From contig DATLEY010000161.1 in the NCBI GenBank assembly GCA_035525215.1, positions 8,483 to 72,482 of the forward strand: DNA of 64,000 nt, given 5' to 3'. Made by a program: the position numbers and the translations under genes. The notes beneath the pieces are model-generated. The model was given only the letters and a program-made list of their open reading frames with translations. It did no database searches and was not told the DNA's origin. Source of the DNA: Thermoanaerobaculia bacterium. Lineage in GTDB: Bacteria; Acidobacteriota; Thermoanaerobaculia; Gp7-AA8. How positions within the stretch are numbered: the first letter of the stretch is position 1; every line of letters starts with the position of its first letter. Below, piece after piece: positions 8,235 to 62,772 of this stretch.

Positions 8235-8815
8235 CAGGGCTTCGGCGCAACGACGTTGGAGGCTTCCTTCAGCCGGCGAGCTTCCTCGCGCGCCGCGGTC
8301 AGGGCGGCCTTCTTTTCATCCAGCGATCTTTTCGCGGTCTGGTACCGGTCGAAGATCTCGTCTTCACGGTTCTCCGGATCCTCTTCCTCGTAATACTCCT
8401 CTTCGAGAGGACCGAGTGACTTCTCGATCGCAGCGATTTCCTTTTCGAGCGCGGTCACTCTGGCGTCGGCCGCGAGGCGAGCCGCGGCCTGCGAGCTCTT
8501 CTCATTGGCCATGCGATCGAGGATCTCCCCTGCCGGCTCGTCCTTCTCGTTCAGTTCGGGAATCAGCGAGGCGGAGTGGACGATGGTGACCCTCCCCCCG
8601 GAGTTCTTGACCACGTCATCGGTGATGACGATTCCCGAGAGGCGGCTCTTTTCCCGGTTCTTGCGCGCGTCCTTGGCCGCCTTGACCAGGGGGGAATCCT
8701 CCTGCGAAGCGGTCTCTTCGGAGGAGGCGGGCGCCGTTTTGGGGGCTTTGGAAGGCTCCGCCGCGATCAGCGCGGAAGCCGCCAGACAGAAACCTGCGAG
8801 GAGAAGACTTTTCAT
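8234..8815 (-). CDS. Secreted acidic coiled-coil protein (hypothetical)
   Basis: The signal peptide MKSLLLAGFCLAASALIAA starts at the internal ATG at 8815. The longer track ORF to 9160 would bury the signal peptide. The rest is K/E/A-rich helical sequence. Confidence 0.45.
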   Translation of the reverse strand: MKSLLLAGFCLAASALIAAEPSKAPKTAPASSEETASQEDSPLVKAAKDARKNREKSRLSGIVITDDVVKNSGGRVTIVHSASLIPELNEKDEPAGEILDRMANEKSSQAAARLAADARVTALEKEIAAIEKSLGPLEEEYYEEEDPENREDEIFDRYQTAKRSLDEKKAALTAAREEARRLKEASNVVAPKP

Positions 8816-8913: not shown

Positions 8914-10716
8914 TCAGACCGCGCGAGTCCCGAATCCGGCGGGTAGCCTCATCGCGACGCTCTCGATCACGAACTCCTCGATCTCCTGCGCGGTCTTTTT
9001 CTGCATTGCCTGGCCGGCAATGCGACGGCAATCGCGATAGCGGAGGGATCGAAGGACCTCCTTCATGACTGGGATCGCCGAAGGAGTCATCGAGAAGATA
9101 TCGAGTCCCAGTCCGAGGAGAATGACGGCGTAGAGAGGATCCGAGGCCATTTCTCCGCACATCGATACCGGAATCCCCGCATCCTTTCCCGCGTCGATGA
9201 CGAGCTTGACCAGGCGGAGGATGGCGGGATGAAGCGGCTCATAGAGATAGCTGACGTTCTCGTTGGAACGGTCGATGGCCAGCGCGTACTGGATGAGGTC
9301 ATTGGTTCCGATCGCGAAGAAATCCGCTTCGGTCGCCAGGACATCCGCGGTCATCGCCGCGGATGGCACCTCGATCATGATCCCGACCGGCAGCTCCGGA
9401 TCGTAGGCCAGTCCCTCGGCATCGAGCTCCTGGCGGATCTCGCGCAGGAATGATTTCGCCTGCCGAAGCTCCTGGATTCCCGAGACCAGGGGAAACATGA
9501 TCTTCATCGGTCCATGAGCCGACGCTCGAAGAATCGCGCGAAGCTGGGTCCGGAACATGTCGCGGTGACGCATGCAGAGGCGCAGCGCCCGAAGGCCGAG
9601 AACCGGGTTGTCCTCTTTGGAGCCCATGACCTCCCGCGCGAGCTTTTTTCCCCCCAGGTCGAAGGTGCGGATGACCGCGCGATGCGGGGCGGCGGCCTCG
9701 GCGATTTTCTGGTAGACCTCCAGGTGTTCCTCTTCATCGGGGAGTCGGGGGCTCTTCGAGATGTAGAGAAATTCCGACCGGTACAGCCCGATCCCTTCGG
9801 CGCCGAAGCGGTGGGCGTCCTGGAGCTCTTCGATCAGCTCGAGATTCGCTTCCAACCGGACGGAATGCCCGTCCCGGGTGATCGTCGGCATGTCGCGATT
9901 CAGGAGAAGCCGCGTCTCATACTCCTCGTGACGCGTCACCTTGCTGCGGAACTCCTCGATCAGCGCGGGCGTTGGATTGACGACCAGGGTTCCTTCGTAG
10001 CCATCGACGATGACGAGCTCCTCGTTGTCGATGACCTGAGTGAGGCGCGGGACCCCGATCACCGCCGGCATGAAGAGCGACTTGGCGATGATCGATGTGT
10101 GCGACGTCCGGCCCCCGGACTCGGTCGCGAAGCCGACGATCGGCTTTCGGTTGAAGTGGACCGCATCGGAAGGAGTGAGGTCATCGGCGAGGATGATCAC
10201 GTCATGATCGATCTCGGAGAGATCGTGATGCGAGAGCCCCTGCAGGTTCTTGAGCAGGCTCATTCCGACGTCCTTCACGTCCTCGCCGCGGTCGCGGAGA
10301 TATTCGTCCTCGAACCGTTCGAAGCGCGCCTCCAGCTCTTCCTGCACTTCGTGGAGCGCCCATTCGGCATTGATCTGATCGAGCTCGATCTTCTGGATGA
10401 CCTTGTCGGAAAAGGCGGGATCGCTGGCGATCATCGCGTGTGCATCGAAAATCGAGGCGTATTCCTCGCCGATGGAACGGGCCACCTTGTCTTTCAAGTC
10501 CAGCAGGTCGATACGGGTCTGCTCGAGTGCCTGGCGGAACCTCCCCACCTCCCGTTCGATGTCCGCTTCCTTGATCGGAACGCGGAAGGCTGAGCTGATG
10601 CGCTCGACGATGAGCGCTCTGCCGATGGCGATTCCAGGAGAGACGCCGATTCCCTTGTAGGTCCGGATCTCCGACCGTACGTCGCGGGGAGGTCTCTTTC
10701 CTTTGGGTACGAACAC
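8914..10716 (-). CDS. ptsI: Phosphoenolpyruvate-protein phosphotransferase (PTS Enzyme I)
   Basis: 600 aa with GVSPGIAIGRA at the N-terminus. Phosphohistidine and PEP-utilising domains are present. GTG start 4 nt after the ptsH stop. Confidence 0.85.
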   Translation of the reverse strand: MFVPKGKRPPRDVRSEIRTYKGIGVSPGIAIGRALIVERISSAFRVPIKEADIEREVGRFRQALEQTRIDLLDLKDKVARSIGEEYASIFDAHAMIASDPAFSDKVIQKIELDQINAEWALHEVQEELEARFERFEDEYLRDRGEDVKDVGMSLLKNLQGLSHHDLSEIDHDVIILADDLTPSDAVHFNRKPIVGFATESGGRTSHTSIIAKSLFMPAVIGVPRLTQVIDNEELVIVDGYEGTLVVNPTPALIEEFRSKVTRHEEYETRLLLNRDMPTITRDGHSVRLEANLELIEELQDAHRFGAEGIGLYRSEFLYISKSPRLPDEEEHLEVYQKIAEAAAPHRAVIRTFDLGGKKLAREVMGSKEDNPVLGLRALRLCMRHRDMFRTQLRAILRASAHGPMKIMFPLVSGIQELRQAKSFLREIRQELDAEGLAYDPELPVGIMIEVPSAAMTADVLATEADFFAIGTNDLIQYALAIDRSNENVSYLYEPLHPAILRLVKLVIDAGKDAGIPVSMCGEMASDPLYAVILLGLGLDIFSMTPSAIPVMKEVLRSLRYRDCRRIAGQAMQKKTAQEIEEFVIESVAMRLPAGFGTRAV

Positions 10717-21665: not shown

Positions 21666-21700
21666 AAAGGAGTTGCGAGTTCCGAGTTGCGAGTTCTACA
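21666..21700. repeat. Direct repeat GAGTTGCGAGTTC x2 in the accA-recJ intergenic spacer
   Basis: GAGTTGCGAGTTCcGAGTTGCGAGTTC is read directly from the sequence, between the accA stop and the recJ start. Confidence 0.5.
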
Positions 21701-22747: not shown

Positions 22748-23239
22748 ATGGAAACCGCGGATTCGACCGAATCGATGCGCCACGTCCCCCCGGCGGCCGA
22801 GCTGCTGCGACGGGTCGATGAGATCTACCGTAAACGTCTGGATGCCGCACTCGCGATCTATGAGACGGCGAGCGAGGATCAGAGGAAGAAGCTCGCAGCG
22901 CGGCTGATCGCGGTCGCGCGCTGGCTCGAGCGGATTCCGGAATCCCCGAGGGAAAATCGCGCGGGACACCGCGGCGAGTCGAACGATCCGCCGACGCGAA
23001 CGCGCGCCGCGCTGCAGATCGCCGTCGAAGCTCTCCATCGCATCGACACGGACCGGTTCGGACATCGGGCGCCATTCCATCGTTTCGAGCAGTCCGGAGC
23101 TGAACGTCTGTACGAAGCGGTACTCGCCGCTGGTTACTCGCTCTCGATCCTGCTCGACGAGATGCAGAAGATTGACCCGGACGTCTGGTGGAAGCTGCTC
23201 GACAGCTCGGCCCGCGACCAGATCCCGATGGTCGGTTGA
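22748..23239 (+). CDS. Hypothetical helical protein
   Basis: 163-aa ORF on the plus strand, divergent from accA. Its composition is protein-like (not low-complexity). The stop codon is embedded in the CTGAG-type repeat. It is the in-frame 3' part of track ORF 21854..23239. Confidence 0.4.
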   Translation: METADSTESMRHVPPAAELLRRVDEIYRKRLDAALAIYETASEDQRKKLAARLIAVARWLERIPESPRENRAGHRGESNDPPTRTRAALQIAVEALHRIDTDRFGHRAPFHRFEQSGAERLYEAVLAAGYSLSILLDEMQKIDPDVWWKLLDSSARDQIPMVG

Positions 23240-23310
23240 GTCCTGAGTGCTGAGTCCTGAGTGTGGCGCCGATCCAAGGCTGGGCGGCGAGACGCCGCCC
23301 GCCACTCTGC
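23237..23310. repeat. Composite intergenic repeat (CTGAG-unit block plus GC hairpin CTGGGCGGCGAGACGCCGCCCGCCACTCTG)
   Basis: TGAGTCCTGAGTGCTGAGTCCTGAGTG is followed by GGGCGGCG-aga-CGCCGCCC. The same two modules recur at 26593-26861 and 30748-31172. Confidence 0.7.
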
Positions 23311-26592: not shown

Positions 26593-26861
26593 AGTGGCGG
26601 GCGGCGTCTCGCCGCCCAGCCGTTAACGGCAATGCTGAAATACTCGGGCCTTTGTGGCGCGGGCTTTCAGCCGGCTGGCGCCACTCGGACGGCGGAGCCG
26701 TCCCAAGCGTTGCTACGTCCCGCTGATACCCGAAAGCGCGCTTCGCGTCGACGAACCAGCGCGCTTCGCGCATCGGCTTGCCTTTAACGCGGCTGGGCGG
26801 CGAGACGCCGCCCGCCACTCTGGCGCCGGCTTTCAGCCGGAGTACTCAGGACTCAGCACTC
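26593..26861. repeat. MITE-like element: ~40-bp terminal inverted repeats flanking ~145 bp, plus adjacent CTGAG-type block
   Basis: Left arm AGTGGCGGGCGGCGTCTCGCCGCCCAGCCGTTAACGGCAA (26593-26632). Right arm TTGCCTTTAACGCGGCTGGGCGGCGAGACGCCGCCCGCCACT (26778-26819). The two are near-perfect reverse complements. The CTGAGT-type block 26841-26861 overlaps the coaBC stop. Confidence 0.65.
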
Positions 26862-29904: not shown

Positions 29905-30696
29905 TCAGCTGCTGCGGCCGTAACGCGAGCGGAAAGTGTTGTAATCGTTGGTGTTCGTGACGAGTCGGGAGTTTCCCGGAAGCTTGGCGATCTCGCTGCG
30001 GACCAGTTCGATGCGGGATTCCGTGACCGGGTGCGACGAGAAGAAACGCTCCACGGCTCCCGGGCTGCGCTGACGCCGAGCCAGGAGCTCTTCGAACATC
30101 GACGCCATCCCCTCGGGGTTGTAGCCAGCCGCGTGCATCCAGCGGGTCCCGAGGACGTCGGACTCCCGCTCGGCGTCCCTGCCATAGCTGGCCATGGCGC
30201 CTCCCGCGACGATCTGCGCGAGGATCTGCTGGTAGGCCGCGGGATTCTGTCCAAGGAGCACGCTCGCCAGGATGTTGATCCCCTGGGCGCGCGACATCTG
30301 CTCGGTGCCGTGACGTTGAACGCCGTGCGCGATCTCATGAGCCATCACGCCCGCGAGCTCGGCGACGTTGTCCGCGGCGCCGATGAGACCCGTCGTCACG
30401 TAGACATGTCCGCCTGGAATGTTGAACGCGTTGACCTCGGGGGAGTCGATGATGTGAAACCCCCAGGGGAGATTCGCCATGGGAGTCTGCGCCACCAGGC
30501 GCTGCCCGAGCTGAGTGATGTAGGCGTTCGCCGCCTGATCCCGGACCACAGGCATCTGGCGCTCGATGTCGGCCGCCAGCTGCTGGCCGAGCCGCCACTC
30601 CTCCTCGAGCGAGATCATGTTGAAGCCGCCGCCGGAAGAGCATCCGGTGATCAGGACTGCAACGATGGCAAGTGCTGAGAGCCGCGCTGATTTCAC
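29905..30696 (-). CDS. M48-family zinc metalloprotease lipoprotein
   Basis: HEIAH zinc motif. Lipobox LITGCSS after a signal peptide. Confidence 0.7.
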   Translation of the reverse strand: MKSARLSALAIVAVLITGCSSGGGFNMISLEEEWRLGQQLAADIERQMPVVRDQAANAYITQLGQRLVAQTPMANLPWGFHIIDSPEVNAFNIPGGHVYVTTGLIGAADNVAELAGVMAHEIAHGVQRHGTEQMSRAQGINILASVLLGQNPAAYQQILAQIVAGGAMASYGRDAERESDVLGTRWMHAAGYNPEGMASMFEELLARRQRSPGAVERFFSSHPVTESRIELVRSEIAKLPGNSRLVTNTNDYNTFRSRYGRSS

Positions 30697-30747
30697 GATT
30701 CAACCTCCTGGTTTGCGGAGGTTATTGAGAGCAACTCCCCTGCCATG

Positions 30748-31172
30748 AGGGAGAGTGCTGAGTCCTGAGTGCTGAGCCTGAGTGCTGAGCCTGAGTGGCT
30801 GAGTCCTGAGTGCTGAGCCTGAGTGCTGAGCCCTGAGGGGCGAGTGCTGAGTCCTGAGGGGCGAGTGCTGAGTGCTGAGGGGGCCAGAGCTGAGTCCTGA
30901 GTAGCTCTGGGCGGCCCGGGCCGGCACGCCTACTCCTGAGTGCAGTAGGGGCGGCGGACTGAACCGTTGGCCTTCAAGCTCCGGAGCCGGCCGAAACCGG
31001 GGGAACTCCGCTCAACCCACCTCAGGACTTACCAAGCGCTCAGGACTCATCCCCTCGGCACTCTTACTCAGCACTCAGCACTCGATCCTCAGCACTCAGG
31101 ACTCTCACTCAGCACTCAGAACTCGTCCCTCAGCACTCTCACTCAGCACTCGATCCTCAGTACTCTTCCTTA
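30748..31172. repeat. Large imperfect palindromic array of 7-8-bp CTGAG(T/C)(G/C)C units
   Basis: About 19 CTGAG units in 30752-30905. About 11 reverse-complement CTCAG units in 31040-31170. These flank a ~115-bp unique core. Fills the ykgJ-M48 intergenic spacer. Confidence 0.8.
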
Positions 31173-47264: not shown

Positions 47265-48092
47265 TCAGTGGTCGTACAGGTTGAACTGCGCGGGATCGAT
47301 CTCCCTCTCTACGCGGTGAATCAGGATCTCGGCGAACGCTTCCCCCTGGCGAAGAGAGACGCCCCCGAGCCGCACGAGCTCGAGCGTCGCCAGAAAGATC
47401 ACCACCAGCTCGGCGCGATCCCTCCCCTCCAGGTACCAGTTCAACCGTAGAGGCGTCGTCTCCGTGAGAACCGTGTAGAGCTCCCTCATCTTGTCGGAGA
47501 CCTTGTAGACGGCGCGTTTCAGCTCGATCGCGTCGGGATGATCGTAGCGATAGCGTTTGATCGCCGAGCGGAAGGCGTCGATCAGGTCGAAGAGAGAAAC
47601 CTCGCTCATATCGAGCTCGCGGGTCTCGGTACCGGGGAGCGGTGACGGAGGCCTGGACCAGACGCCCATCCGGACGACATCCACCTCCGCGAAGCTCTCG
47701 GCCACGGCCTTGTATCGCTGGTACTCCAGCAGGCGGTCGACCAGCTCCGCGCGGGGATCCGTGGAATCGTCCCCCTCCTCGCCGCGCGGAAGCAGCATCT
47801 TCGACTTGATGTGAATCAGGAGCGCCGCGATGTAGACGTAATCCGCCGCGACATCGAGGTCCAGCTCGGCCATCGAGTCGAGATAGGTGTTGTACTGGTC
47901 CGTGATCAGGACGATCGGGATGTCGTAGATGTCGATCTTATGCTTGCGGATCAGGTGAAGGAGGAGATCGAGCGGCCCTTCGAACGAGGGAAGTGAGACG
48001 CGGTAGCTCTCTTCTGCCGCGGCGTCGAGGGGACTCTCATCGGGCTCGAGCTCGGGGAGAAGGTCGGGTTGAAGGGTTTGGTCGATCATCAA
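47265..48092 (-). CDS. scpA: Segregation and condensation protein A
   Basis: FEGPLDLLLHLIRKHKIDIYDIPI, the canonical ScpA N-terminus. Confidence 0.85.
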   Translation of the reverse strand: MMIDQTLQPDLLPELEPDESPLDAAAEESYRVSLPSFEGPLDLLLHLIRKHKIDIYDIPIVLITDQYNTYLDSMAELDLDVAADYVYIAALLIHIKSKMLLPRGEEGDDSTDPRAELVDRLLEYQRYKAVAESFAEVDVVRMGVWSRPPSPLPGTETRELDMSEVSLFDLIDAFRSAIKRYRYDHPDAIELKRAVYKVSDKMRELYTVLTETTPLRLNWYLEGRDRAELVVIFLATLELVRLGGVSLRQGEAFAEILIHRVEREIDPAQFNLYDH

Positions 48093-49093
48093 AACTGCTC
48101 GTAGTCGAGCTTCATGGCCCGGCGCACCAATTCCAGAGTCTCGGTGCAGCGCTCTTTCGCCGCGCGATTCCCCGACCTCAGCACATCCCAGACCACGGAG
48201 GGATCCCGGTCGATTTTCTCACGCCTCTCCCGGATGGGCCGAAGCGCTTCGATCATGATCTCCGTCAGAAGCCTCTTGTCGTCGACGCAGCCGATCTGCG
48301 CCGTTCTGCACTCATGATCGACTCGGGCTGTGGTGGCGGGATCGGAGAGGAGGCGGTGGAACTGAAAAAGATTGCAGATGTCCGGATTGCCCGGATCTTT
48401 CCGCCGGATCCTGTTCGGGTCCGTAAACATGGTGCTCACGAGTTGACGGATCTCGTCCGCGCTGGCGGTCAGCCCGATGGTGTTTCCATAGGACTTCGAC
48501 ATCTTCCTTCCGTCCAGCCCCGGCACCTTCGGCGTTTCGGTCAGAAGGGGCTGGGGCTCGGGAAAGACGTCTCCGTAGAGATGGTTGAAGCGTCGCGCGA
48601 CCTCGCGCGTGAGCTCGAGATGAGCGACCTGATCCTCTCCGACCGGAACGAAGTTCGCCCGGTAGACGATGATGTCGGCGGTCTGGAGCAGCGGATATCC
48701 GAGGAAGCCGTACGTATTCAAGTCGCGGTCGGCCAGCTGCTGCTGCTGTTCCTTGAATGTCGGCACTCGCTCCAGCCAGGGGAGCGGCGTGATCATCGAA
48801 AGGAGCAGGTGAAGCTCGGCGTGTTCCGGAACCTGGGACTGGACGAAGATCGTGGCTATCGCGGGATCCATCCCCGCCGCCAGCCAATCGGCCACGGCAT
48901 CGTAGGTGGCGTCCTTGACCCGCGCCGGATCTGCGTAATCCGAAGTGAGGGCGTGCCAGTCGGCGACGAAATAAAAACAGCGATAGGAGTCCTGAAGGCG
49001 AACCCAGTTCCGAATCGCTCCGAAGTAGTTTCCGAGATGAACGCGGCCGGTAGGCCGCAGTCCGCTGAGGACGATCGCCTGCTGCTGGGTCAC
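48089..49093 (-). CDS. trpS: Tryptophan--tRNA ligase
   Basis: HLGNY (HIGH) and KMSKS motifs. GTG start. 334 aa. Confidence 0.9.
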   Translation of the reverse strand: MTQQQAIVLSGLRPTGRVHLGNYFGAIRNWVRLQDSYRCFYFVADWHALTSDYADPARVKDATYDAVADWLAAGMDPAIATIFVQSQVPEHAELHLLLSMITPLPWLERVPTFKEQQQQLADRDLNTYGFLGYPLLQTADIIVYRANFVPVGEDQVAHLELTREVARRFNHLYGDVFPEPQPLLTETPKVPGLDGRKMSKSYGNTIGLTASADEIRQLVSTMFTDPNRIRRKDPGNPDICNLFQFHRLLSDPATTARVDHECRTAQIGCVDDKRLLTEIMIEALRPIRERREKIDRDPSVVWDVLRSGNRAAKERCTETLELVRRAMKLDYEQF

Positions 49094-49189
49094 CGCGTCG
49101 AGATTGCCTTTCGTGTGGGGTGGAGGATCGGCGGCGACGCCGATGATTTCCCGTCGGACGGGAGGGGGGCGAGTGTAGCGCAGGAAGGA

Positions 49190-49680
49190 AGGATGGTCGA
49201 GGGTTCAGGGTAGAGGAGCGAGGGAAGAGGGGAGAAGCATTCGCGGCGGACCTGCCGCGCAGCGTGCCCCCGCAACTCAAACGACACGGGTCCCGGCTCG
49301 TGAGTCAAAGGCCGTTCACGGGCACGGGCGCGTTCACGTTCACGGGTCGGAGGCAGGAACAGGTCATTCAGAGGCCGCACGGGAGGAGGAGGTGGCAAGA
49401 CGATTGGTCTCGCGGCCGAAGAATCTCAGAATGCGCAGGCCGTCATCGGGTTCTTGTGCCGGTGCACTCGCATCGTCCGAACGCGTCTGGACGTGGATAA
49501 GAACCCGACAGCGATCATCGCGGCTGAGATTCTTCGGCCGCGACGCCAGCTCATATTCTGCACGGCTGGCGCGTGCGGCCTCTGAATGACCCGCCCTCCC
49601 CGCGCAATTCCGCTTCTCCCTCTTCCTTTCGCTCCTCTCCCCTCTCCCTCTTCCATCGCTCCTCTACCCTCTTCCATCCC
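49190..49680. repeat. Nested imperfect palindrome with mirror polypurine/polypyrimidine outer arms (recG-trpS spacer)
   Basis: Outer arms: GGGTAGAGGAGCGAGGGAAGAGGGGAGAAGC (49207-49237) pairs with the complement in 49610-49680. A perfect 20-bp inverted repeat GGTCATTCAGAGGCCGCACG lies at 49361-49380 and 49571-49590. An inner 21-bp inverted repeat lies at 49408-49428 and 49523-49543. Confidence 0.8.
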
Positions 49681-49681
49681 C

Positions 49682-51781
49682 TCAGTCCCTCTCGCGCAGC
49701 TGCTTTCCGCTCTCCAGGACCCCGGGTGCCAGCGCATCCAGATCGCCGTAGGTTCCCTTCTCCGCCGCTTCGATCGCGGCTTCCCTCGCGATCTCCATCA
49801 GCTCGTGATCGCGGATCAGATGGCCGAAGCGAAAACGGGGAACGCCGGACTGGCGAGTGCCGAAGAAGTCTCCCGGGCCGCGAATCTCCAGATCTTTCTC
49901 CGCGACCTCGAAGCCGTCGCGGGTCGACTCGAATGAGCGCAGCCGCGCCTTCGTTTCCTCCGAGGCACCCTCATCGCGGATGAGAATGCAGAGCGACTTC
50001 CTCGAGCCGCGGCCCACGCGACCCCGCAGCTGATGGAGCTGCGAGAGTCCGAAGCGGTCCGCATCGACGATCACCATCACCGAGGCGGCGGGGACATCGA
50101 TGCCGACTTCGATCACGGTCGTCGATACGAGGATGTCGATCTCTCCACGCTTGAACTGCGCCATGACCTGCTGCTTCTGATTCGGAGGCATCCTGCCATG
50201 GAGCACGCCGACGCGGCGGCCGGTAAACGCGGCACGGACCCGCTCTTCGCCCGCGACCAGCGGCGTGAGGTCGAGCTTTTCCGACTCTTCGATGATCGGA
50301 AAGACGATGTATGCCTGCGCCCCCGCCGCGATCTCTTCCTCGATGAACCGGAAGACCTTCGCCAGCCGGTTCGTCCCCCGCACGATGGTCCGCACGGGAG
50401 TTCGCCCGGGCGGCAGCTCGTCGATCACAGAAAGCTCGAGGTCACCGTACATGGCGATGGCCAGCGAGCGCGGGATCGGCGTCGCGGTCATGACCAGGAC
50501 GTCGGGGAGACGTCCCTTCTCGAAGAGCCGCTGGCGCTGCACCACGCCGAACCGGTGCTGCTCGTCGACGATGGCCAGGCCGAGCGAGCGGAACTCCACC
50601 GGTTTCTCGAGGAGCGCGTGAGTTCCGATCAGCAGATCGATCTCTCCTGCTGCCAGCGCCGCGAGAATCGGACGCCTTTCGGCGGCGGACGTGGATCCCG
50701 TCAGCCTGGCCACGCGCACCTTGTCACCGAGAAGCTGACGGATTCTCTCTTCATGCTGCCCAGCCAGAATCTCCGTTGGAGCCATCAATGCCGCCTGATG
50801 CCCGTTGCGGATGACGATCATCGCGGCGATGAGCGCCACGATCGTCTTTCCCGACCCCACGTCGCCCTGGAGCAGCCGGTACATCGGCTCCTCCGCCTGG
50901 AGGTCGCCGGCGATCTCGCGAAGGACCCTTTTCTGCGCCCCGGTCAGCCGGAACGGGAGGACTTCCCGCACGCTGGCGCGCAATTCGTCATCGATCGCGA
51001 TTCGCCGCTGTTTTCTCTTCACTTCCTCGGAGGCGCGGCGCAGCCGCAGAGCCAGCTGAAACGCGAAGAACTCCTGCACGATCAGCCGCCGGTGTGCCGG
51101 CGTTTCGAGGGTCGCGAGCTCCGGAGTCAGCTCTCGCGGATGATGGAGCGAAAGAATCGCTTCACTCAGCGGGATCACGCCGAGCCGTTTTGCGAGAAGC
51201 GGCGGGAAGGGGTCCTCGAGTCGCGACACCGACTCCAGCGCCTGCTGGATCACATTGCGAACGGACTTCGTGTAGATCCCGTTCACCGGCGGATAGATCG
51301 GAACGATCGCCCCCTCGGTCTCGCCGACTCCGGTATCGTCGATCTTCTCCCAGGCGGGGCTGTCGATCTGCAGGCGGTTGCGCTGCGAGAAACGCGGCTG
51401 CCCGTAGATCGCCAGCCGGTCTCCCTTCATGATCTTCTCCGCGAGCCATGGCTGATTGAACCAGACCAGCATCACCGTTCCGGTCGAGTCATCGAGGATC
51501 GTCTCGAAAATCGACATTCTGCGTACCGGCGAGGTCTTCAAGTGCGCGGAGAGGATGCGTCCCCGCAGCAGGACCGGACCGCTCGTTTCTCCGAGATCGC
51601 AGACGCGTGTCGGATTCCGCCGATCCTCATAACGATGCGGAAACCAGAAGAGCAGGTCGCGGGCCGTGCGCAGACCGCAGGCTTCGAACAGCGCCGCCCG
51701 TCCCTCGCCCACTCCGCGCAGATTGCGCACCGAGGTCTCCGGTCCGATGGGCGTCCACTGATCTCGGGCGGCGCGGCTCAC
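49682..51781 (-). CDS. recG: ATP-dependent DNA helicase RecG
   Basis: Wedge domain plus helicase motifs (GDVGSGKT, DEQHRFG). 699 aa. Confidence 0.9.
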   Translation of the reverse strand: MSRAARDQWTPIGPETSVRNLRGVGEGRAALFEACGLRTARDLLFWFPHRYEDRRNPTRVCDLGETSGPVLLRGRILSAHLKTSPVRRMSIFETILDDSTGTVMLVWFNQPWLAEKIMKGDRLAIYGQPRFSQRNRLQIDSPAWEKIDDTGVGETEGAIVPIYPPVNGIYTKSVRNVIQQALESVSRLEDPFPPLLAKRLGVIPLSEAILSLHHPRELTPELATLETPAHRRLIVQEFFAFQLALRLRRASEEVKRKQRRIAIDDELRASVREVLPFRLTGAQKRVLREIAGDLQAEEPMYRLLQGDVGSGKTIVALIAAMIVIRNGHQAALMAPTEILAGQHEERIRQLLGDKVRVARLTGSTSAAERRPILAALAAGEIDLLIGTHALLEKPVEFRSLGLAIVDEQHRFGVVQRQRLFEKGRLPDVLVMTATPIPRSLAIAMYGDLELSVIDELPPGRTPVRTIVRGTNRLAKVFRFIEEEIAAGAQAYIVFPIIEESEKLDLTPLVAGEERVRAAFTGRRVGVLHGRMPPNQKQQVMAQFKRGEIDILVSTTVIEVGIDVPAASVMVIVDADRFGLSQLHQLRGRVGRGSRKSLCILIRDEGASEETKARLRSFESTRDGFEVAEKDLEIRGPGDFFGTRQSGVPRFRFGHLIRDHELMEIAREAAIEAAEKGTYGDLDALAPGVLESGKQLRERD

Positions 51782-53664: not shown

Positions 53665-54032
<368 letters not shown>

Positions 54033-61080: not shown

Positions 61081-62772
61081 TCAGAGAATCCCATCCCGGG
61101 CCGCCTGAGCGACGGCCGCCGCGCGCGAGGGCTGATCCAGTTTTCCAAGGATGTTGGCGACGTGGCGGTGGATGGTGTGCTCGCTCAGCTTGAGAGAACT
61201 GGCCACCTGTTTGTCGCTCATCCCGTCAGCGACCAATCGCAGCACGTCGACTTCCCTTCGCGTGAGAATGGAGAGTCGGGGCGAGCGCGCTTCGACGAGC
61301 TGGGCAGGAGGCTTCGCAAGCGAGTCGCGCACGGCTCGGGCTCGGACAGCCTCGCCCGCGGCGCCGAGCCGCTCGAAGGCGCTCACGGCCGCGTCGATTT
61401 CCTGCCGGGCGAAGCCTGAGCGTCCCAGCGCGTGCAGAACGGTGGCGAGATCGACGCGAACGCGAGCCGCTTCCCACGGGGCTCCACATCGTTCGAAGAG
61501 GTCGAGGGCGTCCTCGAGATGATGCCGAGCCTCCTCCAGGGCATTGCGATCGCGAGCCAGCAGAGCGCGGGCGAGAACGGAGACCGCGCGTATGGCTGGA
61601 GTTCCCATTCTCTGCGAGATTCCCTCGAGCTGCACCATTGCATCATTCGCATCGCGCGCGCTCCCGTTGGCCAGAGACGCGGCGACGAGCAGCTCGAGTC
61701 CCCACGCGCGCTCGACCCACTTTTCCGCGAGCGCTCTTCGACGGAGACGTTCCAGCAGAAATGCGGCGTGAGACGGATCTCCTTCATCGAGGGCGATGGC
61801 CGCCTGTCCCAACAGCGCCATCGTGCGCGGCTCGGTCTCCCTGAAGAGAGCCTTCGCTTCGTCGATCCTCCCCTGCCGTCTCCGCAGCTCGCCGAGTTGA
61901 AGCCGCGCCTCGGGAGCAAGGAGCGGCCGCTTCGCCTCGAGAGCTGCGTGGGAGCTTCCCAGAAGTTTCTCGGCTTCCGCCCATTCTCCTCGTCCAATCA
62001 GAAGCGCGGCCCGCTCGGTTTCGCAGAGGGCGAAGATCGAGCCCATCCGCCACCGCCGCGCGAAGGTCTCGATGCGATCGGACCATGCGCTGAGCCGTTC
62101 GTAATCCCGGACGCGCTCGCAAGCATGAATCAGGAAGCAGGAAGTCGCGACGACCGAATCGATGTGCTCCATCTCTCCTGCGAGCGCCGCCGCGGCGGCT
62201 TCGTCGATTCGTCGCATTCCTTCGTCGATCTCTCCCTCGGTGACCTGGATCAACCCTTCGAGTGCAAGAGCCAGCATCTCAAGCTCGACGTCGCCCAGCC
62301 TTCTGGCGGTCTCGCCAGCCTGGATCGCAAGCGACCGGGCTCTCGAGTGATCCTGTTCGATCGCCCGCGCCAGGTGTCCCTCCCAGAGGTGAAGCCAGCC
62401 GTGCTCCGGTCCTTCGTCCAGCGGCTCGAGCAGTCTCCGCGCGCGCTGCAGCCAGCCGGCGGTGACCGCGAGCCCGCGGAAATCCGCGTAGTCGAGGGCC
62501 AGGAAGATGGCAACCCGCGCTGCGTCGCGATCACGACCGCTGGCCCGGTAGAGGCGGTAGGCCTCTTCGCGCGTCTCGAAAGACGCCTCGGCTTCGTCCA
62601 GCCAGTAAAGCGCCCAACCGAGTCCCTCGCGCGCCTCGGCCGATTCCGCCTCGGCGGCTGCGATCTGCGCGAAGATCTCGCGCGCCCGCTCCCACTCGGC
62701 AGAGGAGAGCGCCGACCGCCCTTCTTCCAGGGTGGGTCGATCGCCGGGACCAGCAGCGTTCAGGTGCGACAA
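61081..62772 (-). CDS. LuxR-family transcriptional regulator with large N-terminal TPR-like helical domain
   Basis: C-terminal GerE/LuxR HTH (LTRREVDVLRLVADGMSDKQVASSLKLSEHTIHRHVANILGKL). About 480 aa of Ala/Leu/Arg-rich helical repeats. Confidence 0.7.
   Translation of the reverse strand: MSHLNAAGPGDRPTLEEGRSALSSAEWERAREIFAQIAAAEAESAEAREGLGWALYWLDEAEASFETREEAYRLYRASGRDRDAARVAIFLALDYADFRGLAVTAGWLQRARRLLEPLDEGPEHGWLHLWEGHLARAIEQDHSRARSLAIQAGETARRLGDVELEMLALALEGLIQVTEGEIDEGMRRIDEAAAAALAGEMEHIDSVVATSCFLIHACERVRDYERLSAWSDRIETFARRWRMGSIFALCETERAALLIGRGEWAEAEKLLGSSHAALEAKRPLLAPEARLQLGELRRRQGRIDEAKALFRETEPRTMALLGQAAIALDEGDPSHAAFLLERLRRRALAEKWVERAWGLELLVAASLANGSARDANDAMVQLEGISQRMGTPAIRAVSVLARALLARDRNALEEARHHLEDALDLFERCGAPWEAARVRVDLATVLHALGRSGFARQEIDAAVSAFERLGAAGEAVRARAVRDSLAKPPAQLVEARSPRLSILTRREVDVLRLVADGMSDKQVASSLKLSEHTIHRHVANILGKLDQPSRAAAVAQAARDGIL

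Follow-up and report, generated by a model that had tools for sequence, protein, structure and literature searches.

A probable mosaic of nested palindromic repeats between recG and trpS in a Thermoanaerobaculia bacterium

The spacer that separates recG from trpS in the metagenome-assembled genome (MAG) of a Thermoanaerobaculia bacterium (GenBank assembly GCA_035525215.1, contig DATLEY010000161.1) is filled by an elaborate palindrome, which we explain, with a probability of about 0.72, as a mosaic of nested palindromic intergenic repeats rather than as one designed structure. The palindrome was studied within a window of 64,000 nucleotides (positions 8,483 to 72,482 of the contig). In this window recG and trpS, the latter followed by scpA, lie on the minus strand, and the spacer, placed 3' of recG and 5' of trpS, measures 588 bp. 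Both the length and the Pfam calls agree with an earlier sequence-only reading of the window, which had assigned the two genes and given their spacer as about 590 bp. That reading had presented the palindrome as a single object of three layers, but the evidence indicates at least three repeat modules. To judge from sequence comparison, the middle and inner layers, together with an innermost pair of arms, are one dispersed repeat, which belongs to a small family of soil Thermoanaerobaculia resembling the miniature inverted-repeat transposable elements (MITEs). The best classification of the element is as a new family of MITE-like palindromic repeats, here lodged in a repeat-armed hairpin typical of the lineage, and the GTTCACG repeats would form a third small module beside it.

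Anatomy of the palindrome

The nested inverted repeats occupy positions 49200-49681, and the recG stop codon abuts the palindrome directly. This is a real, non-random structure. Its inverted-repeat words are expected 0.02-0.03 times per shuffle of the window and are observed twice each, which excludes a chance origin. RNA folding, which the sequence-only reading had called for, finds the palindrome to be far more stable than its shuffles on either strand, with -282 kcal/mol (z -10.2) for the minus strand and -279 kcal/mol (z -11.6) for the plus strand; folded as DNA, it reaches a z of -11.1 against shuffles.

In the outer layer, positions 49207-49238 pair with 49612-49643 (32 nt, 78%) and 49207-49231 pair with 49646-49670 (25 nt, 96%), and TRF describes the pyrimidine side as a 27-nt unit present 2.1 times. 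This bears out the purine/pyrimidine inverted layer, partly duplicated, that had been seen there before. A 24-mer from the outer arm is confined within the window to the recG-side arm and positions 49208-49231. The middle layer (49362-49381 with 49572-49591) is indeed the perfect repeat that had been claimed, with 20 of 20 positions paired across a spacing of 190 nt. The inner layer pairs 49405-49429 with 49524-49548 (25 nt, 92%); the 21-bp repeat previously placed at this site is present, but it contains one mismatch. Inside it lies a fourth, innermost pair, 49446-49471 with 49483-49508 (73%), which had escaped the sequence-only reading, while the GTTCACG tandem repeats are found where they had been noticed, at 49313-49346. 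The term "concentric" does not truly suit these layers, as the gap between the outer and middle layers measures 123 nt and holds its own side hairpin on one side, against 20 nt on the other. Nor are the arms mirror repeats, as had been thought: they are inverted complements of each other, the longest mirror repeat being 7+7 nt (49224-49237), and an equally long one turns up in 12% of the shuffles of the arm.

A dispersed MITE-like element

The element composed of the three internal layers is an imperfect palindrome of ~240 bp. Its terminal inverted repeats measure 20-23 bp, or ~30 bp when their G-rich and C-rich tails are counted, and its ends are of the GGGCGGGGGTCATTCAGAGGCCGCACG type. In the alignment of the copies the terminal repeats comprise 23 paired positions, and 68% of the core is self-complementary. 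When species-representative genomes were scanned for an 18-mer of the middle (terminal) repeat, at least two complete two-armed copies, L011 and L013, were recovered on two contigs of the Thermoanaerobaculia MAG SMAG_U14434. This MAG differs from that of the window (HVS accessions in the former and HUP accessions in the latter). Seven of the nine 18-mer matches listed (L009, L010, L012 and L014-L017) are single-arm chance matches in other phyla and were rejected. Further copies were reached by translating the element and searching protein collections: a fourth on an ENA forest-soil contig (L018), a fifth DNA copy in another ENA soil assembly (L020) and a sixth that is known as a translated open reading frame (ORF) only (P0129). 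A match to a 700-aa repeat protein (P0127, 4e-08) was judged to be a low-complexity coincidence, and no protein matched the element when it was translated in antisense.

At least five DNA copies are hence found in four assemblies, at non-orthologous intergenic loci with different neighbor genes in each case. Relative to the window copy, their identity is 92% in L013, 89% in L011, 83% in L018 and 79% in L020, with a range of 73-92% over all pairs. The similarity of the window element to L011 and L013 spans ~240 bp and ends at the element ends, and the flanks of all the copies are unrelated. L011 is accompanied by a subtilase gene and a Ser/Thr kinase gene, L013 by a small ORF beside a DUF2071 gene, L018 by an unnamed ORF upstream and another gene downstream, and L020 by the 3' end of an alpha/beta-hydrolase-like gene. 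The search for further copies that the sequence-only reading had proposed has thus added at least four DNA copies at unrelated loci.

Conservation within the family is concentrated in the stems. The 23-bp terminal and 20-bp inner stems are invariant among the copies that keep both arms, whereas the segments between the stems vary and are mutually complementary in L020 but not in the window, L011 or L013. The first four copies share an invariant block of 43 nt; in L020 the inner-stem arms are invariant too, and the differences are limited to a few bases after CTCAG within this block. Reading frames are broken or shifted from copy to copy, and the element is therefore non-coding; Pfam matches none of the ORFs inside it. 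MITE criteria are stated in a review of bacterial repeats (PMC3184786). MITEs are under about 400-600 bp and free of a transposase or conserved ORF, have terminal inverted repeats and occur at non-orthologous loci, and in each of these features the element, at ~240 bp, resembles them. A MITE had been among the options offered by the sequence-only reading. This option stands for the middle and inner layers, which recur at four or more other loci with 79-92% identity and unrelated flanks and are absent in relatives, but it probably does not extend to the outer layer.

The orthologous spacer and the putative trpS promoter

The order FHA gene, recG, trpS and scpA is kept in three relatives (L001, L002 and L004) whose TrpS is about 85% identical to that of the window. 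Their recG-trpS spacers, when compared as had been suggested, measure 196-247 bp against the 588 bp of the window, and the element has left no trace in them. The ~110 nt nearest trpS are conserved in the alignment, while the stretch from the recG stop codon to the promoter is unalignable. Among the three relatives the identity falls to 41-45% in this hairpin zone, as against 80-91% in the recG 3' end, the promoter and leader (82-86% by themselves) and the trpS 5' end.

The conserved stretch includes the word TACACT, which is invariant in seven loci (the window, L001, L002, L004, L005, L006 and L007) and is presumably the -10 box of trpS. A -35-like T[TC]G[AC]C word with a 17-nt spacer can be read from the alignment of the relatives; a simple sigma-70 consensus scan did not call the trpS promoter. 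The TACACT box lies downstream of the palindrome in the direction of trpS, and, if it is the -10 box, the palindrome would fall outside the trpS transcript. Moreover, the palindrome is not a conserved trpS leader, because the orthologous hairpin zone is unalignable while the promoter and leader are conserved. The promoter-like box and leader (49094-49200) match no Rfam family.

Tandem-repeat-armed hairpins past stop codons

We lean toward reading the outer layer as the resident 3' hairpin of recG, a member of a lineage-wide class, because each co-directional relative has a hairpin at the same place. Every relative with adjacent, co-directional recG and trpS genes (L001, L002, L004 and L006) displays a very stable hairpin (z -7 to -12) 1-14 nt past the recG stop codon. 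The arms of these hairpins are built of tandem 7-, 9- or 25-nt units whose sequences are unrelated between the relatives: CATTCAA/CATTCAC units facing GAATGTT units in L001, AATGCAG units in L002 and GGGAGTCTA nonamers in L004. In L006 (GCA_035544735.1) the recG-trpS spacer, which measures 608 bp, has become nested independently (9393-9925): three 25-nt units just past the recG stop codon pair with three 17-nt units before the promoter, and between them lies a hairpin of GAATGCA heptamers (9586-9697) like that of L002. Repeats seem to land or expand recurrently at the recG-trpS site.

Such hairpins extend beyond recG. In about 190 kb of related loci (L001-L006) we found 17 paired-array hairpins, nearly all of them 0-16 nt past a stop codon or the RNase P RNA gene (for example, L001 2201/2306 and 9086/9163; L002 717/784; L004 607/676, 2503/2590 and 6851/6964; L005 356/398 and 2334/2377). 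They are made of 7-, 8-, 9-, 17- or 25-nt units of locus-specific sequence, have almost no G-U pairs and display no sense/antisense energy bias (8 versus 9). We define this class here as the tandem-repeat-armed 3' hairpins: those no more than ~16 nt from a stop codon, with arms of tandem units, high stability and a locus-specific sequence. The outer layer of the window, which starts 3 nt past the recG stop codon and has the 27-nt unit 2.1 times on one arm against a single copy on the other, falls within it.

Certain unit types, namely the GAATG-, GTGAACG- and GAGTSCT-types, recur at different loci. A TAGGAC core is common to the units in the RNase P-S66 spacer of three relatives, and the GAATG-type heptamer array CAGAATGMAGAATG occurs both in the RNase P-S66 spacer of L005 (3333-3346) and in the recG-trpS spacers of L002 (4771-4784) and L006 (9591-9604). 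GAATG is also the core of the MITE terminal repeat CTCTGAATGACC, and, going by this shared core, a common origin or recognition of the array and the terminal repeat is possible. On a more speculative reading, which we consider unlikely but of interest, the outer layer and its counterparts could constitute an undescribed bacterial foldback class, renewed at the DNA level, with arms of tandem 7-27-nt units just past stop codons across Thermoanaerobaculia. The fixed position of the hairpins, the complete replacement of their sequence between non-coding flanks that are more than 80% identical, and arms that are almost perfectly Watson-Crick paired without strand bias would then point to renewal at the DNA level, by the movement of foldback elements or by template switching together with slippage, rather than to ordinary RNA-level selection. 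In view of the GAATG core in the MITE terminal repeat, the MITE and the repeat-armed hairpins may even share one recognition or mobilization system. The coordinates of the features discussed above are collected in Table 1.

Table 1. Features of the recG-trpS region in window coordinates (strand left blank where none applies)
Feature	Position	Strand	Remarks
recG CDS	49682-51781	-	Pfam RecG_wedge, DEAD, Helicase_C and RecG_dom3_C; exact protein HUP66358.1
trpS CDS, GTG start	48089-49093	-	Pfam tRNA-synt_1b; 100% match to HUP66357.1
Outer layer, recG-side arm	49612-49678		5' arm in gene sense, purine-rich on the sense strand; two copies of the 27-nt unit
Outer layer, trpS-side arm	49207-49238		3' arm on the sense strand, pyrimidine-rich there; single copy
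MITE-like palindromic element (middle, inner and innermost layers)	49357-49597	-	Orientation taken from the other copies; nhmmer envelope 49357-49595
Terminal inverted repeat, recG end	49572-49594		CGTGCGGCCTCTGAATGACC plus C-rich tail; invariant among copies with full ends
Terminal inverted repeat, trpS end	49359-49381		GGTCATTCAGAGGCCGCACG
Inner 20-25-bp stem	49405-49548		CGCGGCCGAAGAATCTCAG / CTGAGATTCTTCGGCCGCG; encloses the apical hairpin 49446-49508; best-conserved part of the element
Fast-evolving internal patch	49382-49404	-	Adjoins the trpS-side terminal repeat; unpaired, opposite the conserved branch hairpin 49549-49571
Side-branch segment between middle and outer layers	49239-49356	-	Separate hairpin in the fold; holds the GTTCACG module 49300-49347
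Putative trpS promoter	49172-49200	-	-35-like TCGACC 49195-49200, 17-nt spacer, -10-like TACACT 49172-49177
Conserved trpS 5' leader	49094-49171	-	Small hairpins; GAAAGG ribosome-binding-like site before the GTG; outside the palindrome

Alternative explanations

Several observations weigh against the mosaic of a MITE-like element within a resident hairpin. Even the most diverged copy retains the sequence of the terminal and inner stems, whereas the interior is variable; this is unlike many MITEs, and a function at the protein or RNA level is therefore possible. The ends of the element show no direct repeat in the window, L011, L013 or L020, the termini being uncertain where the palindrome fades into its G- and C-rich tails. 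In L019, when compared with L013, the homology begins exactly at the right end of the element and the left neighbor differs or is rearranged, and this locus too yields no target-site duplication. An extension of ~50 nt on the left is common to L011, L013 and L018 but is missing from the window copy. A transposase with matching ends was not identified, though no dedicated search for one was made. The family is also small, with at least five copies as DNA and one as a translation; two scans of JGI metagenomes, one for a two-arm pattern and one for the invariant central 23-mer, gave no matches, a scan of viral contigs gave none, and a distant BLAST search against plasmids recovered no copies. As for the outer layer, relatives in which a convergent kinase gene overlaps the end of recG have no hairpin, which makes the recG 3' hairpin dispensable. 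The hairpin of the window is not followed by a T-run, and there is hence no U-tract terminator signature; the number of terminator-like sites in 48950-49800 is zero. Finally, matches to the right outer arm and to the GTTCACG module beside other copies imply that the outer layer may belong to a longer composite.

This last point forms the basis for an alternative in which the whole palindrome of ~480 bp (outer arms, GTTCACG module and core) is a long composite of the same family that became nested in an older member of the family, or was mobilized as a unit, and would have replaced the original hairpin of recG. We consider it unlikely, though L018 is nested likewise, with an outermost pair GGGGGCATTCAGAG / CTCAGAATGACCCCC, a second pair CGCGAGC..GGAGATGAC and then the core, and has a GTGAACG module between its core and right end, as does the window at 49300-49347 (window 49347-49300 against L018 1322-1358 scores 26, compared with 13.2 +/- 2.2). 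Part of the same region (49319-49349) is identical at 29/31 positions to L004 31-61, near the RNase P RNA gene, and L011 has an extra outer inverted pair around its core. The right (trpS-side) outer arm starts with GAATGC and a C/T-rich tail, resembling the element right end GAATGACCCCCGCCCTTCCC (L018; p 0.035, weak), and has the 16-mer CCCTCTTCCCTCGCTC in common with the right flank of L020 (p about 0.02). This 16-mer is, however, of low complexity and has 12 chance-level matches in viral contigs, for which reason we regard the link to L020 as weak evidence. The left (recG-side) outer arm lacks significant similarity to the flank of any other copy (p 0.2-0.8), and its homology to the ~50-nt left extension of L011, L013 and L018 was rejected (47% identity; p 0.5-0.8). 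The window and L018 have their modules in different orders, the outer arm occurs nowhere else in the window, and relatives without the core still carry a hairpin at exactly the same position.

The remaining alternatives are far less probable. A conserved structured RNA, either a long trpS leader sensing tRNA-Trp or tryptophan or a small RNA gene of ~240 nt with paralogs, would be consistent with the very stable predicted structure, the highly conserved stems and, in the terminal stem of L018, a compensatory A:T to T:A exchange relative to the other copies. Furthermore, the orientation of the copy agrees with that of the downstream gene in all four cases where this gene is known, although such agreement is not significant (p about 0.06). 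We nevertheless consider such an RNA, which the sequence-only reading had also proposed, very improbable: the palindrome is absent from the orthologous spacer of relatives with a conserved trpS leader, the element lies upstream of the conserved TACACT box and the genes downstream of its copies are functionally unrelated. Sense and antisense strands fold equally well, with no signal from the core in a test of G-U versus C-A asymmetry, and two-sided changes affect just 3-4 of about 81-84 pairs, none of them in the inner stem. Neither the orthologous conservation nor the covariation that distinguishes a conserved cis-regulatory or small RNA is thus seen. That no T-box is present on the trpS strand had been noticed before and is corroborated by an Rfam scan of 48000-51000, which gave no T-box or other family at E<=10; at the gathering score, the whole window and the loci of four relatives yielded RNase P RNA only. 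A match to 'MIR1437' (E 0.08, 27 bits versus the 168 needed) merely reflects the long hairpin and was discarded.

A structure acting at the level of DNA, namely an H-DNA triplex or a cruciform that regulates supercoiling, replication or recombination, was a further option of the sequence-only reading. It could draw on the homopurine/homopyrimidine arms, the z of -11 for the single-stranded DNA fold and the almost purely Watson-Crick pairing of the arms, in which G-T pairs are very scarce, consistent with arms that are maintained as DNA. As a specific function it nonetheless appears still more remote. H-DNA needs mirror repeats of about 10-12 nt per half with a short spacer, whereas the mirror repeats of the arms do not rise above chance and the purine tract is broken by T and C. 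The imperfect palindromes, with their long spacers, disfavor the extrusion of a cruciform, and the same core occurs in unrelated contexts. An assembly artefact, in the form of a chimeric hairpin produced by a short-read metagenome assembler, can practically be dismissed. The source is indeed a MAG, and assemblies of this lineage do break at repeats: L003 is cut off 143 bp 5' of trpS, in the promoter/leader that adjoins the hairpin zone, and the end of L020 falls within the flank of the repeat. The element, however, lies inside an 86.8-kb contig, where it is bordered on either side by syntenic genes, and near-identical copies are internal to four other contigs from three other assemblies by different groups.

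Proposed origin and significance

Under the mosaic scenario, the ~240-bp element would have entered the spacer by insertion, presumably through a transposase acting in trans, and lodged near the apex of the outer hairpin. An insertion there would be tolerated on account of its apical position; no other kind of insertion leaves the outer hairpin foldable, and this would explain the concentric look of the whole. We envisage that trpS is transcribed from its own promoter downstream, while any RNA reading on from recG would adopt, in its 3' untranslated region, a single giant hairpin of several layers. If it behaves like the REP/BIME, ERIC and Correia repeats (PMC3184786), this hairpin could terminate or insulate transcription, block 3' exonucleases or alter the decay of the mRNA; we hypothesize in particular a role of the recG 3' hairpin as a terminator or insulator.

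The mosaic accounts for an eye-catching structure of 490 bp as a stack of small palindromic repeats, and its recognition prevents the annotation of the region as a trpS riboswitch or leader. The element would be the first MITE-like family described for the Thermoanaerobaculia, a class of uncultured soil Acidobacteriota; our search of the literature turned up no paper that connects the class with MITEs. More unusual than the MITE, however, is a lineage in which long tandem-repeat-armed hairpins lie past many stop codons and have their sequence replaced very fast. If these hairpins are the terminators of the lineage or stabilize its mRNA 3' ends, they would offer a natural system in which to follow the birth, growth and invasion of terminator-like hairpins. 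MAGs of the group would, in addition, be systematically broken or mis-assembled at such hairpins.

Other repeats and an RNA gene in the vicinity

A second giant foldback is present in the window at 30746-31166 (RNA fold z -9.3, loop about 185 nt). Its arms consist of GAGTGCT/GAGTCCT repeated ~18 times (30753-30879) and ACTCAGC repeated 12.6 times (31066-31151), and it is situated between an unnamed ORF with its stop at 31157 and the gene for an M48 peptidase (29905-30696), both on the minus strand. Direct heptamer arrays with no inverted partner nearby are found at 21670-21696 (GAGTTGC/GAGTTCC, 3.9 copies), between two co-directional minus-strand ORFs, and at 62121-62144 (AAGCAGG, 3.4 copies). 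A REP-like palindrome of 30 nt, GGCTGGGCGGCGAGACGCCGCCCGCCACT, which is unrelated to the one between recG and trpS, occurs three times in the window (23279-23308, 26593-26622 and 26790-26819). Two of these copies form a perfect inverted pair 167 nt apart, and runs of the GAGTSCT heptamer adjoin two copies (23237-23263 and 26840-26860); the palindrome was not found in any of the loci of relatives or element copies that were examined.

In two JGI contigs, 21-nt tandem repeats like GCTTCGAGGAAGTGAAAGTTC lie between the gene for the FHA-domain protein and recG (L005 5177-5337 with 7.6 copies and L007 5293-5520 with 10.9 copies), and no inverted partner was found for them. The RNase P RNA of the window is of the bacterial class A (53666-54027, minus strand, 313 bits) and is part of a synteny block kept in relatives, which comprises YacP, RNase P RNA, an S66 peptidase, the FHA protein, recG and trpS.

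Comparison with known repeat systems

In its architecture the element is closest in kind to the small MITE-like repeats of other bacteria, such as ERIC/IRU of enterobacteria, Correia of Neisseria, RUP and Nezha. Like them, it is small, non-coding and intergenic, has terminal inverted repeats, folds as a whole unit into a hairpin and is present as diverged copies at unrelated loci; in those families, too, the copies often lie just 3' of genes. ERIC, moreover, has a highly conserved central inverted repeat. The element differs from these families in that it has no sequence similarity to them and displays no target-site duplication or TA flanks. It is set apart from known MITEs by its copy number, at least six so far, its uncultured acidobacterial host and the occurrence of forms with extra nested inverted layers. 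Many bacterial repeats are situated at the 3' ends of genes, where they are co-transcribed and affect the stability of the mRNA (PMC3184786).

The mosaic of the spacer also recalls the REP/BIME and REPINs in its inverted palindromes past stop codons and in its variation between relatives at the level of the site. In E. coli and Pseudomonas, the REP/BIME and REPINs are extragenic palindromic units in inverted arrangement, joined by linker motifs, that come right after stop codons; REP/BIME vary between close relatives at the same site and have been proposed to act as terminators or mRNA stabilizers. REP units, however, are 20-40 nt long, form one sequence family of hundreds of copies and are linked to RAYTs, whereas the arms in Thermoanaerobaculia are tandem 7-27-nt units that differ by locus. 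The nearest structural parallels for the outer layer and the foldback at 30746-31166 are the eukaryotic Foldback (FB) and Galileo elements, which likewise have long inverted arms of short tandem repeats. FB and Galileo operate on the kilobase scale and some of them carry transposase genes, while any mobility of the repeat-armed hairpins described here is conjectural. To our knowledge, no bacterial counterpart of FB and Galileo has been established.

As a strong hairpin just past a stop codon, between co-directional units, the outer layer also resembles the Rho-independent terminators, from which it is distinguished by the lack of a U-tract, stems that are 5-20 times longer and repetitive arms. 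A canonical intrinsic terminator, AAAGGCTCCGGGGCGACCCGGAGCCTTTCTTTT, is found directly upstream of the element copy in L011 (2099-2132), and the lineage thus also uses ordinary terminators composed of a hairpin and U-tract. Lastly, the cyanobacterial STRR and the TAACTGA repeats of the Beggiatoaceae (PMC4679880) share with the hairpin arms the organization as 7-nt tandem repeats confined to intergenic regions. They are, however, direct arrays of single conserved heptamers, whereas in Thermoanaerobaculia the unit varies by locus and the arrays occur as inverted pairs that form hairpins.

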